Assembly: GCF_016903815.1 (NCBI RefSeq)
Contig: NZ_CP069973.1
From: Escherichia coli
GTDB lineage: Bacteria > Pseudomonadota > Gammaproteobacteria > Enterobacterales > Enterobacteriaceae
Reading direction: 5' to 3' (one strand)
Length of the DNA: 64,000 nt
Of the stretch, positions 4,656 to 48,550 are shown in pieces. A program made the position numbers and the translations under genes. The notes under the pieces are model-generated. The model ran no database searches, was not told where the DNA came from, and worked only from the letters and a program-made list of their open reading frames with translations. Every line of letters begins with the position of its first letter. Position 1 is the first letter of the stretch.

Positions 4656-4724
4656 AACGTCTCCGTGAATCACTGGTCGTTCACACCCCCTCTGCATCAT
4701 GCAGAGGGGAATTTTTCTGGCAAA

Positions 4725-25727: not shown

Positions 25728-27215
25728 ATGCGTAATCCCACGCTGTTACAATGTTTTCACTGGTATTACCCGGAAGGCGGTAAGCTCTGGCCTGAACTGG
25801 CCGAGCGCGCAGACGGTTTTAATGATATTGGTATCAATATGGTCTGGTTGCCGCCCGCCTATAAAGGCGCATCGGGCGGCTATTCGGTCGGCTACGACTC
25901 CTATGATTTATTTGATCTAGGTGAGTTTGATCAGAAAGGCAGCATCCCTACTAAATATGGTGATAAAGCACAACTGCTGGCCGCCATTGACGCCCTGAAA
26001 CGTAATGACATTGCGGTGCTGCTGGACGTGGTAGTCAACCACAAAATGGGCGCGGATGAAAAAGAAGCTATTCGCGTGCAGCGTGTAAATGCTGATGACC
26101 GTACGCAAATTGACGAAGAAATCATTGAGTGTGAAGGCTGGACGCGTTACACCTTCCCCGCTCGTGCCGGGCAATACTCGCAGTTTATCTGGGATTTCAA
26201 ATGTTTTAGCGGTATCGACCATATCGAAAACCCTGATGAAGATGGCATTTTTAAAATTGTTAACGACTATACCGGAGAAGGCTGGAACGATCAGGTTGAT
26301 GATGAACTCGGTAATTTCGATTATCTGATGGGGGAGAATATCGATTTTCGCAATCATGCCGTGACGGAAGAGATTAAATACTGGGCGCGCTGGGTGATGG
26401 AACAAACGCAATGCGACGGCTTTCGTCTTGATGCGGTCAAACATATTCCGGCATGGTTTTATAAAGAGTGGATCGAACACGTACAGGAAGTTGCGCCAAA
26501 GCCGTTGTTTATTGTGGCTGAATACTGGTCGCATGAAGTCGATAAACTGCAAACGTATATTGATCAGGTGGAAGGCAAAACCATGCTGTTTGATGCGCCG
26601 CTGCAGATGAAATTCCATGAAGCATCGCGCATGGGTCGCGACTACGACATGACGCAGATCTTCACTGGGACGCTGGTGGAAGCCGATCCTTTTCACGCCG
26701 TAACCCTCGTTGCCAACCACGACACCCAACCGTTGCAAGCCCTCGAAGCCCCCGTCGAACCGTGGTTTAAACCGCTGGCGTATGCCTTAATTTTGTTGCG
26801 GGAAAATGGCGTTCCTTCGGTGTTCTATCCGGACCTCTACGGTGCACATTACGAAGATGTCGGTGGTGACGGGCAAACCTATCCGATAGATATGCCAATA
26901 ATCGAACAGCTTGATGAGTTAATTCTCGCCCGTCAGCGTTTCGCCCACGGTGTACAGACGTTATTTTTCGACCATCCGAACTGCATTGCCTTTAGCCGCA
27001 GTGGCACCGACGAATATCCCGGCTGCGTGGTGGTCATGTCGAACGGAGATGATGGCGAAAAAACCATTCATCTGGGAGAGAATTACGGCAATAAAACCTG
27101 GCGTGATTTTCTGGGGAACCGGCAAGAGAGCGTAGTGACAGACGAAAACGGCGAAGCGACCTTCTTTTGCAACGGCGGCAGCGTCAGCGTGTGGGTTATC
27201 GAAGAGGTGATTTAA
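25728..27215 (+). CDS. amyA: Cytoplasmic alpha-amylase AmyA
   Basis: ORF 495 aa [49 protein letters not shown]13 motifs. Confidence 0.93.
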
Positions 27216-27221
27216 ATCCAT

Positions 27222-27240
27222 CCCCGGCGGCAAGCCGGGG
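27222..27240. terminator. Hairpin between convergent amyA and yedD
   Basis: ccccggcggcaagccgggg inverted repeat. Confidence 0.5.
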
Positions 27241-27248
27241 AGATTTCA

Positions 27249-27665
27249 TTACGGCAGTGGCGTCGGTAACGGCGCTTTATCCAGCGCGGCGGCACACTCT
27301 GCCGTCGGGCGATCCACACGCTCCATCGTCATACCATCGTACTCAATGGTGTTACCGTCACGCTCAACCTCGTACAGCTCACGTTTTACGGTAACGTTAG
27401 TGAGATCATCAGACATCAATGTCAACTTACCCGGCACGGCAATCACCCGCTGCCACTGACGGCAATCCAGGGTATCGCCCTCTTTAGTGACAATGAGGCT
27501 GCCTATCGCTTCCGGACTGACCAACGCACGTTGCGGCCCTTTGGTCTGCCAGTAGCCCGCCAGCCAGTCCGGCGCGGGGGTTTTCACGACATTGTTATAG
27601 TTTTCGACTTCGGCACAGCCCGCCAGCAACATGAGCGCACCTGCAATTGCGAGTTTTTTCATCAT
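27249..27665 (-). CDS. yedD: Lipoprotein YedD
   Basis: ORF 138 aa MMKKLAIAGALMLLAGCAEVENYNNVVKTP (lipobox LAGC). Confidence 0.88.
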   Translation of the reverse strand: MMKKLAIAGALMLLAGCAEVENYNNVVKTPAPDWLAGYWQTKGPQRALVSPEAIGSLIVTKEGDTLDCRQWQRVIAVPGKLTLMSDDLTNVTVKRELYEVERDGNTIEYDGMTMERVDRPTAECAAALDKAPLPTPLP

Positions 27666-27848
27666 TCGTCCTGCATGCGAAGAAAAGAGGATTGTGGCAT
27701 TAAAGCCCTGATGTCGCCAGCCTTTCCAGGTTCAGAGAGAAATTTGATCTAACCATTATTTTTGTGAATTATTACCCCGAAAATAAATTTGCATGGTGTA
27801 TGATTCGCGAATCTTGTTTCAAACCTTCTGAGTTCAGAGGCTACATTC

Positions 27849-29054
27849 ATGTCATGGCAGCAATTCAAACACGCCTGGTTGATTAAATTCTGGGCGCCCA
27901 TCCCCGCGGTCATCGCGGCGGGTATTCTCTCCACTTACTATTTTGGCATCACTGGCACCTTTTGGGCTGTCACAGGTGAATTTACCCGTTGGGGCGGTCA
28001 GCTCCTGCAGTTGTTCGGCGTCCATGCTGAAGAGTGGGGTTATTTTAAAATTATCCATCTGGAAGGATCGCCATTAACCCGCATCGACGGAATGATGATC
28101 CTCGGTATGTTTGGCGGCTGTTTTGCCGCAGCGCTGTGGGCCAACAATGTCAAACTGCGCATGCCGCGCAGCCGTATCCGCATTATGCAGGCCATCATTG
28201 GCGGTATTATCGCCGGTTTTGGCGCACGTCTGGCAATGGGCTGTAACCTGGCGGCGTTCTTTACCGGAATTCCACAGTTCTCGCTGCACGCCTGGTTCTT
28301 TGCCATCGCCACTGCCATTGGTTCATGGTTTGGCGCGCGCTTTACCCTTCTGCCCATCTTCCGTATTCCCGTGAAAATGCAGAAAGTTTCTGCTGCCTCA
28401 CCGTTGACGCAAAAACCGGATCAGGCGCGGCGTCGTTTTCGTCTCGGGATGCTGGTCTTTTTCGGCCTGCTGGGCTGGGCGCTGCTGACGGCGATGAACC
28501 AGCCCAAACTGGGGCTGGCAATGCTGTTTGGTGTCGGCTTTGGTTTACTGATTGAACGTGCGCAAATCTGCTTTACTTCGGCGTTCCGCGATATGTGGAT
28601 CACCGGACGTACCCATATGGCGAAAGCAATCATTATCGGTATGGCGGTAAGTGCCATCGGGATCTTCAGTTACGTACAGTTAGGCGTTGAACCCAAAATC
28701 ATGTGGGCGGGACCAAACGCGGTAATTGGTGGTTTACTGTTTGGTTTTGGCATCGTGCTGGCAGGCGGCTGCGAAACCGGCTGGATGTACCGCGCGGTAG
28801 AAGGCCAGGTGCACTACTGGTGGGTCGGTCTGGGCAACGTGATCGGCTCAACGATTCTGGCGTACTACTGGGATGATTTCGCTCCGGCGCTGGCCACCGA
28901 CTGGGACAAAATCAACCTGCTGAAAACCTTTGGCCCGATGGGCGGCCTGCTGGTGACATATTTGCTGTTGTTTGCTGCTCTAATGTTGATTATTGGCTGG
29001 GAAAAACGCTTCTTCCGCCGTGCGGCACCGCAGACTGCTAAGGAGATCGCATGA
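27849..29054 (+). CDS. yedE: YedE/YeeE-family inner-membrane transporter (selenium/sulfur-compound related)
   Basis: ORF 401 aa polytopic membrane protein MSWQQFKHAWLIKFWAPIPAVIAAGILSTYYFGITG. Confidence 0.88.
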   Translation: MSWQQFKHAWLIKFWAPIPAVIAAGILSTYYFGITGTFWAVTGEFTRWGGQLLQLFGVHAEEWGYFKIIHLEGSPLTRIDGMMILGMFGGCFAAALWANNVKLRMPRSRIRIMQAIIGGIIAGFGARLAMGCNLAAFFTGIPQFSLHAWFFAIATAIGSWFGARFTLLPIFRIPVKMQKVSAASPLTQKPDQARRRFRLGMLVFFGLLGWALLTAMNQPKLGLAMLFGVGFGLLIERAQICFTSAFRDMWITGRTHMAKAIIIGMAVSAIGIFSYVQLGVEPKIMWAGPNAVIGGLLFGFGIVLAGGCETGWMYRAVEGQVHYWWVGLGNVIGSTILAYYWDDFAPALATDWDKINLLKTFGPMGGLLVTYLLLFAALMLIIGWEKRFFRRAAPQTAKEIA

Positions 29055-29284
29055 AAAATATCGTTCCTGATTACCGTCTTGATATGGTGGGTGAACCCTG
29101 CCCTTATCCGGCAGTCGCAACCCTTGAGGCGATGCCGCAGTTAAAAAAAGGGGAGATCCTGGAAGTGGTGAGCGACTGTCCGCAGTCGATCAATAATATT
29201 CCACTGGATGCGCGTAATCACGGCTATACGGTGCTGGATATTCAGCAAGACGGGCCGACCATTCGTTATTTAATTCAGAAGTAA
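29051..29284 (+). CDS. yedF: TusA-like sulfurtransferase-fold protein YedF
   Basis: ORF 77 aa MKNIVPDYRLDMVGEPCPYPAVATLEAMPQLKKGEILEVVSDCPQS (CPxP motif); start overlaps the yedE stop. Confidence 0.9.
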   Translation: MKNIVPDYRLDMVGEPCPYPAVATLEAMPQLKKGEILEVVSDCPQSINNIPLDARNHGYTVLDIQQDGPTIRYLIQK

Positions 29285-29290
29285 TCCCTC

Positions 29291-29317
29291 ATTCCCGCTG
29301 TGGCCCACAGCGGGAAT
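29291..29317. repeat. Near-perfect 13-bp-arm palindrome between yedF and yedK
   Basis: attcccgctgtgg-c-ccacagcgggaat. Confidence 0.7.
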
Positions 29318-29392
29318 ATCGTTGCCTCTCTATCACATAGATTTAACCCGCCCCCTCTCCTATTCTTTTCAGTGTGACCTCAGGAGGTTTCT

Positions 29393-29819
29393 ATGTGTGG
29401 ACGCTTTGCCCAATCCCAAACGCGTGAAGATTACCTTGCGCTTCTCGCGGAAGATATTGAACGCGATATTCCCTACGATCCCGAACCTATTGGCAGATAC
29501 AACGTCGCGCCGGGAACCAAAGTCCTTCTGCTCAGTGAACGTGATGAACACCTTCATCTGGATCCGGTTTTCTGGGGATATGCTCCCGGATGGTGGGATA
29601 AACCGCCGCTGATTAACGCCCGCGTAGAAACTGCCGCAACCAGTCACATGTTTAAACCGCTCTGGCAACATGGTCGGGCAATCTGTTTTGCCGATGGCTG
29701 GTTTGAGTGGAAAAAAGAAGGCGACAAAAAGCAGCCTTATTTTATCTATCGTGCTGATGGACAAGCTGTTTTTATAGCCGCGATAGGTAGCACACCGTTT
29801 GAGCGTGGTGACGAAGCCG
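29393..29819 (+). pseudogene. yedK: yedK (SRAP / abasic-site-processing protein) truncated after about codon 142
   Basis: ORF 29393-29890 matches YedK MCGRFAQSQTREDYLALLAEDIERDIPYDPEPIGRYNVAPGTK...IGSTPFERGDEA, then diverges into an unrelated 23-codon tail at the IS-remnant junction; full-length YedK is about 222 aa as I recall. Confidence 0.8.
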
Positions 29820-30101
29820 GAAGAAGTTTTTGTAAGCCCGCTCAGGGTCTTTCAGTGACTGTTGCAATGGCTGTGAGGGCGAATCTTTAAGCCATTGCGT
29901 TTCAGTGGCATTTTTCCACTCAACCAACCAGGAAGCCATTTTCCCGTAAGGGATGTATTTATTACCGGCCTCATGATTCTCATTCTGAAGCGCCAGAGCA
30001 CGATTGAAAACGAAACGACATGCGCCTGCGAAGCGCCTCATTTCACGCTCCTGTTGACCACCTGGTCTTAACCGGAATTTGAATGCCTGTAGTCGTTTCA
30101 T
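29820..30101 (-). pseudogene. tnpB: tnpB N-terminal fragment (IS605 OrfB / TnpB-family)
   Basis: Only about 95 N-terminal residues are recognisable; RuvC-like and zinc-finger regions are absent. Confidence 0.7.
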
Positions 30102-30123
30102 GGGCCAAATCATACTTTGGCCT

Positions 30124-30481
30124 ATGAAAAAAGAAACCGATATCCGACGCGGAAGGCATTGTGTTTTCCTGAAGCATGTTCACCTAGTCTTCGTTACTAA
30201 ATACCGACGTCAGATTTTTGACCATGACGCGACAGAAAAACTACGCACTTACTTTTCAAATGTATGTGCTGATTTTGAAGCTGAACGGGTTGAAATGGAT
30301 GGCGGACCAGATCACGTCCATTTGTTAATTAACTATCCTCCCAAACTGGCGATATCCAGTCTGGTAAACAGCCTCAAAGGCGTATCGAGTAGGTTACTGC
30401 GACGAGATCGACCAGATATTGCAGTCAGGTATTACGACAAAGGCGTTTTGTGGAGTCCTGGCTATTTTGTCAGTAGCTGCA
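30124..30481 (+). pseudogene. tnpA: tnpA (IS200-type Y1 transposase), probably C-terminally truncated
   Basis: HUH motif HVHLL and a tyrosine in GYF are present; the C-terminal tail after VSSC is unrelated to the family; truncation is inferred from recalled family sequences. Confidence 0.6.
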
Positions 30482-30804
30482 TCTTAACGTATCAACTAGA
30501 TTTAATAACAACGATATCCGTACCTAACCGGATATCTAATGTCATAAGCATCCCTTTAATTATCCCCTCAACCTCTTGTAACTTTCCCACTCTTGAGCTC
30601 CACATAGTCCAAACGCCGGATGCAAAAAAATCACACGTGCATTTCTGAAATTGTGATGGAGGAAGATAGTATCAATTATATGTGCTTAGAAACGTCCCCG
30701 ATTAGCGCAGAAGTCACCGGATTGTTCAGACTCAAATAGGTTGAGTATGCCGTATTTATTTTCCAAAATAAAAATCGATGCTGTTGCTCCTTCATAAAAT
30801 ACTT

Positions 30805-31602
30805 TTACTCTCTGGACGCTTTTCTTAGCTCTCTTGGTGTTATCTTAAAACGATTATGGAACCTTTCAGTAAAACGAGAAGGACACTTGTAACCATTTTC
30901 CCTGGCAATCTCGCTGATGGGTTTTACTGTCGTTTGTATAGCAGACAACGCATTATTTAACCTCACGTCGTCCAATATACTTTGAAAACTTACTCCCTCG
31001 CTTGCCAGACGGCGATGCAATGTGGAAACAGAAATGTAGAGATATCTCGCTACCTTGTTTGCTGTCCATTTTGTTCCAGGTTCGGATAGCATTAGGTTAT
31101 AACAACGACTTATTAATGATTGTTTACTATCTGATAAAAGTAAACAATTAACATGATGTGCTCCTAATGAAAGTAGAACGCCCATTGCTAAGTGTTCCTG
31201 AATTTGCGTTGAGAAGCCTCGGGAAATAGATGTTTTTAGTTGCTCCCAACAATATATTAACTCGGGGTTCTGAGGTAAGCAGAAACCTGTCGTGTTACGA
31301 ATTTGATCAGTTATCGCATAAAATTTTTGAAACTTTTCAATTAGATCAATGGGATAATAAAGCATTTCTGCAAGATAAAGACCTGCTTCTGGATAATTCG
31401 CAATATAAAATTCATATCCACAGGGAAATAATATTATCTGATTATTATCAACAGTTAGACTATGCGTCTCCCAATTGATAACTTTTTTTCCCTGACGGAT
31501 ACGACATAAAGCTGGCATAAGAGGCTTAACCCTGTGAATCTCATGATGTTTATGCATCCGTATTTCTTCAATCTTTAGGTTAGTCTTATCTTTTGCCAGC
31601 AT
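30805..31602 (-). CDS. ybcM: AraC-family transcriptional regulator (YbcM-like)
   Basis: ORF 265 aa with a C-terminal AraC-type HTH ([40 protein letters not shown]); resembles the YbcM of the K-12 DLP12 prophage as I recall it. Confidence 0.75.
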
Positions 31603-31611
31603 ACTCTTACC

Positions 31612-32163
31612 CTACTTTATCTCATAAACTGGTGTTATCTCAGCGGTTGCAATTTTATTGGCATTAAGCATATAACCAACTAACGCTCCGCTGGAATTAG
31701 AATCCACAGGAATTTTATCAGTTTTTAGAGCCCATACTTTAAACTGGTAATGATGGGGTTTATCTCCTTTGGGAGGACATGCTCCACCAAATCCTGCATA
31801 ACCAAAATCATTTCGGCCTTGAACAGCACCAGTCGGAAGTTTTGTACCATCACGTCTTCCTGCATCAGCGGGCAAATATGTTACAGTTGCTGGAATATTA
31901 GCAACAGTCCAGTGCCACCATCCACTGCCTGTAGGAGCATCTGGATCATACACAGTTACGGCAAAGCTTTTGGTGCCTTCAGGAGCACCAGACCAGGTTA
32001 ATGAGGGCGATGTATTACCACCTTCACACCCAAATCCAGAAAATACATGAGACGTTGTAAGTTGCTCTCCTGTTTTTATTTCATTACTAGTGACCTGAAA
32101 TGCTGCGGCCTGCGCAGAAAATGTTATGAATGCCAATACACTTGAAACGATAAGTTTTTTCAT
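31612..32163 (-). CDS. ybcL: PEBP/UPF0098-family periplasmic protein (YbcL-like)
   Basis: ORF 183 aa with signal peptide MKKLIVSSVLAFITFSAQA and PEBP motifs (DPDAP, GYAGFGGACPPKGDKPHHYQF). Confidence 0.8.
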   Translation of the reverse strand: MKKLIVSSVLAFITFSAQAAAFQVTSNEIKTGEQLTTSHVFSGFGCEGGNTSPSLTWSGAPEGTKSFAVTVYDPDAPTGSGWWHWTVANIPATVTYLPADAGRRDGTKLPTGAVQGRNDFGYAGFGGACPPKGDKPHHYQFKVWALKTDKIPVDSNSSGALVGYMLNANKIATAEITPVYEIK

Positions 32164-44276: not shown

Positions 44277-44900
44277 ATGTCAACGATTATTATGGATTTA
44301 TGTAGTTACACCCGACTAGGTTTAACCGGGTATCTGTTGAGTAGAGGGGTTAAAAAAAGAGAAATCAACGACATTGAAACCGTTGATGACCTTGCCATAG
44401 CTTGTGATTCACAGCGCCCTTCAGTGGTGTTTATTAATGAGGACTGTTTCATCCACGATGCTTCTAACAGTCAGCGTATCAAGTTCATCATTAATCAACA
44501 TCCCAATACGTTATTTATCGTTTTTATGGCAATTGCCAATGTTCATTTTGATGAATATCTATTGGTCAGAAAAAATTTATTGATCAGTTCTAAATCGATT
44601 AAACCGGAATCTCTCGACGATATCCTTGGCGATATTCTGAAAAAAGAGACAACGATAACCTCGTTTTTAAATATGCCGACGTTATCATTGAGCCGAACCG
44701 AATCGAGTATGTTGCGAATGTGGATGGCAGGTCAGGGAACCATTCAAATCTCTGACCAAATGAATATCAAAGCCAAGACCGTTTCATCGCATAAAGGTAA
44801 TATTAAACGTAAGATCAAAACGCATAATAAACAGGTTATCTACCATGTCGTCCGACTGACGGATAATGTGACTAATGGTATTTTTGTCAACATGCGCTAA
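44277..44900 (+). CDS. rcsA: Capsule synthesis regulator RcsA (LuxR-family)
   Basis: ORF 207 aa [44 protein letters not shown]. Confidence 0.93.
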
Positions 44901-44943
44901 CACATTCTGACTGGTGGTTTCCCACCAGTCAGGCCGAATTAGA

Positions 44944-45534: not shown

Positions 45535-45622
45535 AAAATCCCGACCCTGAGGGGGTCGGGATGAAACTTGCTTAAGCAAGAAGCACTTAAAAAATTCGTT
45601 ACACCAGGAAATCTGATGTGTT
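45535..45622 (-). ncRNA. dsrA: Small regulatory RNA DsrA (Hfq-dependent; activates rpoS translation, represses hns)
   Basis: Reverse complement reads AACACATCAGATTTCCTGGTGTAACGAATTTTTTAAGTGCTTCTTGCTTAAGCAAGTTTCATCCCGACCCCCTCAGGGTCGGGATTT, including the terminator hairpin. Confidence 0.92.
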
Positions 45623-48410: not shown

Positions 48411-48550
48411 TGGCATGATAAGACGCGACAGACATCGATAGTTTTATAACGTAGGCATGATAAGACGCGATAGCGTCGCATCAGGCAATTCAGTGCAGAC
48501 ACTGGCACACCCGACCGGATGCGACGTGAGCGCCACATCCGGTCGGGTGT
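48411..48550. repeat. REP/BIME-type extragenic palindromic repeat cluster
   Basis: Tandem gtaggcatgataagacgcga units and ccggatgcgacg...catccggtcggg palindromes typical of enterobacterial REP sequences. Confidence 0.6.

Follow-up and report, generated by a model that had tools for sequence, protein, structure and literature searches.

A conserved, single-copy palindrome after yedF in Escherichia coli as a putative U-less 3'-end stem-loop of the yedEF operon

Between yedF and yedK of Escherichia coli stands a perfect inverted repeat, ATTCCCGCTGTGG-C-CCACAGCGGGAAT, and the question arises what such a structure does at the end of a selenium-metabolism operon. It occupies positions 29291-29317 of the window, by which the whole analysed stretch of 64,000 nucleotides is meant. 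A previous sequence-only reading had described a palindrome with 13-bp arms between these 2 genes, had denied for lack of a T-run that it is a classic intrinsic terminator, and had offered 3 possible functions: an RNA stability element, a protein-binding operator, or a small REP-like unit. The geometry described there is right, as the arms are 13 nt long, 100% complementary and separated by a single central base (13+1+13), and the names of the upstream and downstream genes agree with the annotation. The repeat starts 6 nt past the yedF stop codon TAA (29282-29284) and leaves 75 nt to the yedK ATG at 29393. No copy of it appeared by chance in 100 shuffles, and no longer perfect short-range inverted repeat exists in the whole 64-kb window.

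Steric constraints exclude a hairpin loop of 1 nt. As RNA, the repeat is predicted to form a 12-bp stem (29291-29302 with 29306-29317) closed by a 3-nt loop (29303-29305), and both dimensions fall within those of intrinsic terminators (GC-rich stem of about 5-14 bp, loop of 3-8 nt). The predicted energy is -24.2 kcal/mol in a context of 71 nt (z = -5.4), a value that none of 200 shuffles equalled, and about -19.4 kcal/mol for the hairpin alone. The structure ranks within the approximately 20 most stable local hairpins on both strands of the window.

Several other hairpins of the window were also recorded. The most stable ones are 2 REP-like GC-rich palindromes at 48511-48546 (CCGACCGGATG…) and 59160-59189 (GCCGGATGCGGCG…). 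Two hairpins without a T-run, CTGACTGGTGG-GAAA-CCACCAGTCAG at 44907-44932 (-22 kcal/mol, just past the end of an ORF at 44277-44900) and ATCCCGACCC-TGAGG-GGGTCGGGAT at 45538-45562 (-20.5 kcal/mol), may be further U-less 3'-end stem-loops. A perfect 11+1+11 palindrome at 4687-4709, CCCCTCTGCAT-C-ATGCAGAGGGG, shares the geometry of the yedF palindrome but is followed by AATTTTTCT; because of this T-run, it is probably an ordinary terminator.

As seen in Table 1, the hairpin closes a unit whose first gene is yedE. The gene order is amyA, yedD, yedE, yedF, yedK, and the region is 100% identical to that of E. coli strain 7/2 and other strains. Besides separating the hairpin from yedK, the spacer holds the promoter or 5'UTR of yedK and a Shine-Dalgarno sequence, AGGAGG. 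No strong sigma-70 promoter was found in these 75 nt by consensus scan; weak -10 candidates identified by eye are TAGATT at 29338-29343 and, in K-12, TATGAT, which reads TGTGAC here. In the present lineage, a fragment of an IS200/IS605 element cuts yedK off near 29818, while in K-12 yedK is intact and the hairpin is the same save for 2 base differences. The homology of the truncated yedK ends after about 142 codons. The sequence that follows (window 29818-30650, and on to about 33300) contains a reversed N-terminal tnpB fragment, an IS200/IS605 tnpA, and then ybcM, ybcL and emrE beside fliE; the genes ybcM, ybcL and emrE we take to be those of the DLP12 prophage in K-12. In K-12 itself, the intact yedK is followed by yedL and a DUF5503 pseudogene.

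Table 1. Position and basis of the features at the yedF-yedK junction (window coordinates)
Feature	Coordinates	Strand	Basis
yedE (selenium metabolism membrane protein YedE/FdhT)	27849..29054	+	ORF and RefSeq annotation, 100%-identical strain 7/2
yedF (TusA-like sulfurtransferase), last gene of the yedEF unit	29051..29284	+	ORF, RefSeq annotation
Palindrome	29291..29317	+	Inverted repeat, RNA fold, covariation, single copy
Stem core, 5' half, TTCCCGCTGT	29292..29301	+	Invariant in 9/9 sampled E. coli haplotypes
Stem core, 3' half, ACAGCGGGAA	29307..29316	+	Invariant in 9/9 sampled E. coli haplotypes
C-rich, G-poor spacer, 75 nt (C 24, G 11)	29318..29392	+	Composition; E. coli-only distribution
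yedK (SRAP / abasic-site crosslinking protein), truncated here	29393..29818	+	ORF, annotation; not part of the element

With a 37-nt query centred on the palindrome, the hairpin was detected in 5377 of 5426 complete E. coli genomes, at a median of 2 "places" per genome, which we read as one palindromic site matched on both strands. A covariance model built from the orthologues matched only sites after yedF in 476 kb of sequence (the window plus relatives, 80 related loci). An Rfam scan of positions 27000-32000, with E-values up to 10, returned 2 chance snoRNA matches and none at the palindrome.

The full form with 13-bp arms is a minority allele. By exact match of the 37-nt haplotype, the form of the window (ending in GGGAAT) is carried by 633 of the 5377 genomes, the majority form (ending in GGGAAC) by 2855, and the K-12 form (GTGA…GGGAAC) by 1087; about 800 genomes have other haplotypes, all within 3 mismatches of the majority form. 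Most E. coli have C for T at 29317, or A or T for G at 29303, leaving a stem of 10-12 bp. In a sample of 12 sequences drawn from every identity band, representing 9 distinct haplotypes, the palindrome varies only at 29291, 29303, 29306 and 29317, that is, in the outermost pair and at the apex. None of the 20 columns of the 10-bp core (29292-29301 with 29307-29316) is variable, while 23 of the 88 columns elsewhere in the intergenic region are (hypergeometric P about 0.005). The hairpin is also kept in lineages with a truncated yedK, the present one included.

For comparison among genera, YedF was scanned for in one genome per species, which yielded 80 loci. This stem recurs behind yedF in cryptic Escherichia (CTCCCGCTGTTTCAGGCAGCGGGAG), Salmonella (CTCCCGCTGTACGTTACGGCGGGAG) and many Citrobacter (CTCCCGTTGC…GCAACGGGAG). 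An alignment of 18 sequences (E. coli, cryptic Escherichia, Salmonella, Citrobacter and one Enterobacter) has 92.5% of its cells paired, compared to 38-59% when the 3' partners are slid. Compensatory change on both sides is seen in 6 of the 12 pairs; the second pair, for example, is U-A in E. coli and C-G in all other genera. The covariation score is 0.348 against 0.183 for shuffled alignments, a value attained in 0 of 500 shuffles. Across genera, the sequence itself is conserved in the outer 5-6 bp, and the inner 5-6 bp covary.

Among these relatives, the 75-nt spacer and yedK are present only in E. coli, and synteny breaks immediately 3' of the stem. Since relatives that keep the hairpin have neither yedK nor the spacer, the hairpin belongs to the end of yedEF and not to yedK. 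In the cryptic Escherichia loci, yedK is absent after yedF in 4 of 4 cases; at the one inspected, yedF is followed by an ORF of 134 aa and then by a YedL-like acetyltransferase. Among the Escherichia sampled, the placement of yedK beside yedF is thus specific to E. coli proper. A yedK homologue also follows yedF in Franconibacter.

Hairpins at this position extend well beyond the orthologous stem. A hairpin of -12 kcal/mol or lower starts within 30 nt of the yedF stop in 73 of the 80 Enterobacteriaceae species, with a median start at 5 nt. In more distant genera, these hairpins are often unrelated in sequence, and several Citrobacter carry a REP element instead of the stem. The conservation across Enterobacteriaceae that had been proposed as a check is therefore found for the stem itself in Escherichia, Salmonella and Citrobacter, with unrelated hairpins elsewhere. 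In 9 Citrobacter loci, the REP-type sequence GCCGGATG…TTATCCGGC lies just past the yedF stop, at the position of the CTCCCG hairpin of other Citrobacter, Salmonella and Escherichia. Here, one 3'-end structure seems to have been exchanged naturally for another.

Compared with a canonical intrinsic terminator, the E. coli element is likewise a GC-rich hairpin right after the last gene of an operon, and it has orthologues with a T-run in Salmonella and some Citrobacter, but the U-rich tract (about 7-9 nt 3' of the stem) is missing. The palindrome is followed by ATATCGTTGCC, with a longest T run of 2. Past the GC core, the tail reads AATATCGTT, with 4 T of 9 and again no run longer than 2, and the K-12 form has 3 of 9; it may also be given as AAUAUCGUU (3-4 U of 9). 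No T-run follows the palindrome on either strand, and the terminator scan makes no call, so that the earlier denial of a classic intrinsic terminator holds. The sequence upstream of the stem is TAATCCCTC, and no A-tract is present. Downstream, the C/G ratio of the spacer is 2.2 and its (C-G)/L is 0.173, within the top 2.6% of 75-nt windows; the K-12 spacer has C 19 and G 5 in its first 60 nt.

We consider it somewhat probable that the yedF hairpin is a U-less 3'-end stem-loop of the Rho-dependent type, protecting and defining the 3' end of yedEF and insulating yedK. The palindrome would be the DNA template for the 3'-terminal stem-loop of the yedE-yedF mRNA, and its transcript would fold, 6 nt past the yedF stop, as a 12-bp hairpin rich in GC. 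Release of RNA polymerase at the hairpin itself would probably be inefficient, because there is no U-tract. Most transcripts would enter the untranslated, C-rich and G-poor spacer, a candidate Rho-loading (rut) tract, and Rho may load there and terminate transcription in or beyond it. The tail left behind would then be shortened by the 3'-to-5' exonucleases PNPase and RNase II until they reach the base of the hairpin. In this way the hairpin would set and protect the mature 3' end of the yedEF mRNA, and it may keep the transcription of yedEF apart from that of the separately regulated yedK. Among the 3 functions that had been offered for the palindrome, the RNA stability or 3'-end element is the one supported, on the grounds of compensatory pairing, linkage to the 3' end of yedF without yedK, and the anatomy of a U-less stem-loop; the operator is unsupported, and the REP-like unit is refuted by copy number.

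Elements of this type have been described in E. coli. When 3' ends were mapped by Dar & Sorek 2018 (NAR, PMC6061677), Rho-dependent transcripts were found to end precisely at stable stem-loops. These stem-loops have no U-rich sequence after them, no upstream A-tract, and a downstream bias of C over G, and evidence was given that, once Rho has terminated transcription diffusely at points farther downstream, they shield the transcripts from PNPase and RNase II (PMC6061677). Judged by its sequence, the yedF hairpin displays every sequence-level feature of this U-less class: the stem-loop has terminator-like dimensions and energy, little U follows it, an A-tract is absent, C exceeds G downstream, and it lies just past a coding region. 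It differs in that the untranslated downstream tract is only 75 nt long and a gene in the same orientation comes next.

Published expression data are consistent with a boundary between yedF and yedK. During a growth transition of O157 Sakai, values of -2.15 for yedE and -2.78 for yedF were reported, as opposed to +2.55 for yedK (PMC2241611), and yedK is listed among the RpoS-dependent genes in EDL933 (PMC2907692). The opposite responses of yedEF and yedK, together with the RpoS listing, fit separate transcription units. No 3' end is recorded at MG1655 2009600-2009899, a range that takes in 2009719-2009750 at the hairpin, in the supplements of Adams et al. 2021 that were covered, and the SMRT-Cappable-seq supplements contain no entry for yedE, yedF or yedK; yedEF was probably too weakly expressed under the mapping conditions used. 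Adams et al. 2021 list only a 3' end inside yedE, at MG1655 2008838 (+), approximately window position 28410 and about 560 nt into the gene, in a supplementary table that we took to be the Rho-dependent set. This entry hints that, in standard growth, transcription of the operon may terminate prematurely. Termination inside yedE may help explain the low downstream signal.

Other points weigh against the model. The bias of C over G in the spacer is moderate, and 75 nt before the strong ribosome-binding site of yedK is short for Rho loading. In addition, template-switch mutation can produce compensatory changes in a DNA palindrome even where the RNA is not under selection.

The main rival to the Rho model is a weak, non-canonical intrinsic terminator, in which the hairpin would release a fraction of polymerases without Rho, perhaps with help from the A/U-rich AAUAU that comes right behind the GC core and from NusA or NusG. 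We regard this as possible but rather unlikely. The element is in the right place, and its stem and loop are typical of terminators. T-runs follow the orthologous stem in Salmonella (GGGAGACCTTTT(T)AC) and in Citrobacter MGH106 (GGGAGATTTTTC), and of the 73 positional analogues, 26 have a clear T-tract and 27 are clearly without one. Given the T-runs of the Salmonella and some Citrobacter orthologues, the element may descend from an ordinary intrinsic terminator, some of whose activity the E. coli hairpin may retain. Nevertheless, E. coli RNA polymerase needs a U-tract for efficient hairpin-dependent release, and both the U-poor E. coli tail and the silence of the consensus terminator scan argue against this rival. 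A rough d'Aubenton-Carafa-type score points the same way, being clearly negative for the E. coli hairpin, but it is to be read qualitatively, as 2 control hairpins of the window presumed to be terminators also scored negative because of the way in which the stem boundaries were set. The element also recalls the "I-shaped" hairpin-only terminators, which likewise lack a U trail at a gene end and which have been proposed for mycobacteria and are catalogued in WebGeSTer. That proposal, however, covers other RNA polymerases and organisms, and to our knowledge hairpin-only termination is not established for the E. coli polymerase.

It is improbable that the hairpin is an evolutionary relic with little function now. 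According to this explanation, an ancestral terminator hairpin lost its U-tract as the yedK module came alongside, and the palindrome has persisted through self-correction by template switching. The synteny break immediately 3' of the stem would be expected in such a history, as would the presence of T-runs in some relatives and their absence from E. coli and cryptic Escherichia. However, the core is invariant across the sampled E. coli diversity while the adjoining spacer is polymorphic. Moreover, the hairpins that distant genera keep at the same position are not homologous, which argues for continuing selection on a hairpin after yedF.

A translation-gated switch, in which the efficiency of yedF translation decides whether the hairpin forms, and with it where the yedEF mRNA ends and how much transcription runs on into the yedK module, appears quite improbable. 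Because the hairpin starts only 6 nt past the stop (the analogues of 73 species have a median of 5 nt), its lower 5' arm would be covered and melted by a ribosome that terminates on yedF. If true, this switch would couple a DNA-repair gene to an operon for selenium handling.

A site acting at the DNA level is a very improbable explanation. The palindrome would here serve either as a cruciform or as an operator with dyad symmetry, bound by a dimeric regulator of yedK (or yedEF). A GC-rich centre disfavours cruciform extrusion. An operator would accord with the perfect dyad symmetry, with the conservation across genera of the outer half-sites CTCCCG/CGGGAG (TTCCCG/CGGGAA in E. coli), and with a possible -35 element of the yedK promoter, identified by eye, that the 3' arm adjoins. 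On the other hand, the element follows yedF in species without yedK or the spacer, and the inner positions of the arms change while complementarity is kept. Reg-Seq found a single "repressor" site at yedK, at -14..+27, which was attributed to TreR by mass spectrometry (PMC7567609). If the nominal transcription start site (TSS) is 45 bp upstream of the ATG, this site corresponds to window positions of about 29334-29375, in the C-rich spacer, and none covers -57..-31, where the hairpin would lie. This counter-argument is weak, because the Reg-Seq files give 2 nominal TSS coordinates for yedK, 2009776 and 2009866, which are 90 bp apart (PMC7567609); a wild-type sequence by which to choose between them was looked for in the supplements and not found. 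The operator suggested earlier is nonetheless set aside, as the element is linked to the end of the upstream gene, its upper stem covaries, and the only Reg-Seq site of yedK is downstream of the hairpin.

The last explanation, a small REP-like or mobile-element repeat related, for example, to the IS200/IS605 fragment about 500 bp downstream, has next to no probability: true REP elements occupy the equivalent position in several Citrobacter species and an IS200/IS605 tnpA is close by in this strain, but the hairpin is a single site per genome across 5377 genomes, shows no similarity to the 2 REP-like GCCGGATG-type hairpins of the window or to the REP-like elements after yedF in Citrobacter, has no Rfam match, and exists in K-12 without an IS at the locus. 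The genome-wide count of copies, which had been proposed as a check, thus gave no generic repeat. The comparison with REP/BIME elements, which act as stabilisers of mRNA 3' ends and as Rho-associated sites, is still instructive. Both are transcribed extragenic palindromes able to block 3' exonucleases, and REPs take the same position after yedF in several Citrobacter species; the yedF hairpin differs in being single-copy, without the REP consensus, and a perfect palindrome where REPs are bulged.

Two further candidates were rejected. A terminal hairpin of the IS200/IS605 element does not apply, as the IS fragment starts near 29820 and does not adjoin the palindrome, and K-12 has the hairpin without the IS. 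A bacterial SECIS, which stands directly after an in-frame UGA, was weighed solely since yedEF are selenium-metabolism genes; the stop codon of yedF in E. coli is UAA.

In sum, the palindrome is judged to be real: a conserved stem-loop, present once per genome, at the 3' end of the yedEF operon. It gives the yedEF transcription unit of E. coli a well-supported 3' boundary, which carries little weight beyond annotation and implies no new mechanism. The locus also serves as a comparative example, in which the pairing of one orthologous stem is kept while the tail is U-rich in Salmonella and some Citrobacter and U-less in E. coli and cryptic Escherichia. It is thus a handy natural series for examining how intrinsic terminators, Rho-associated protective hairpins and REPs replace one another.
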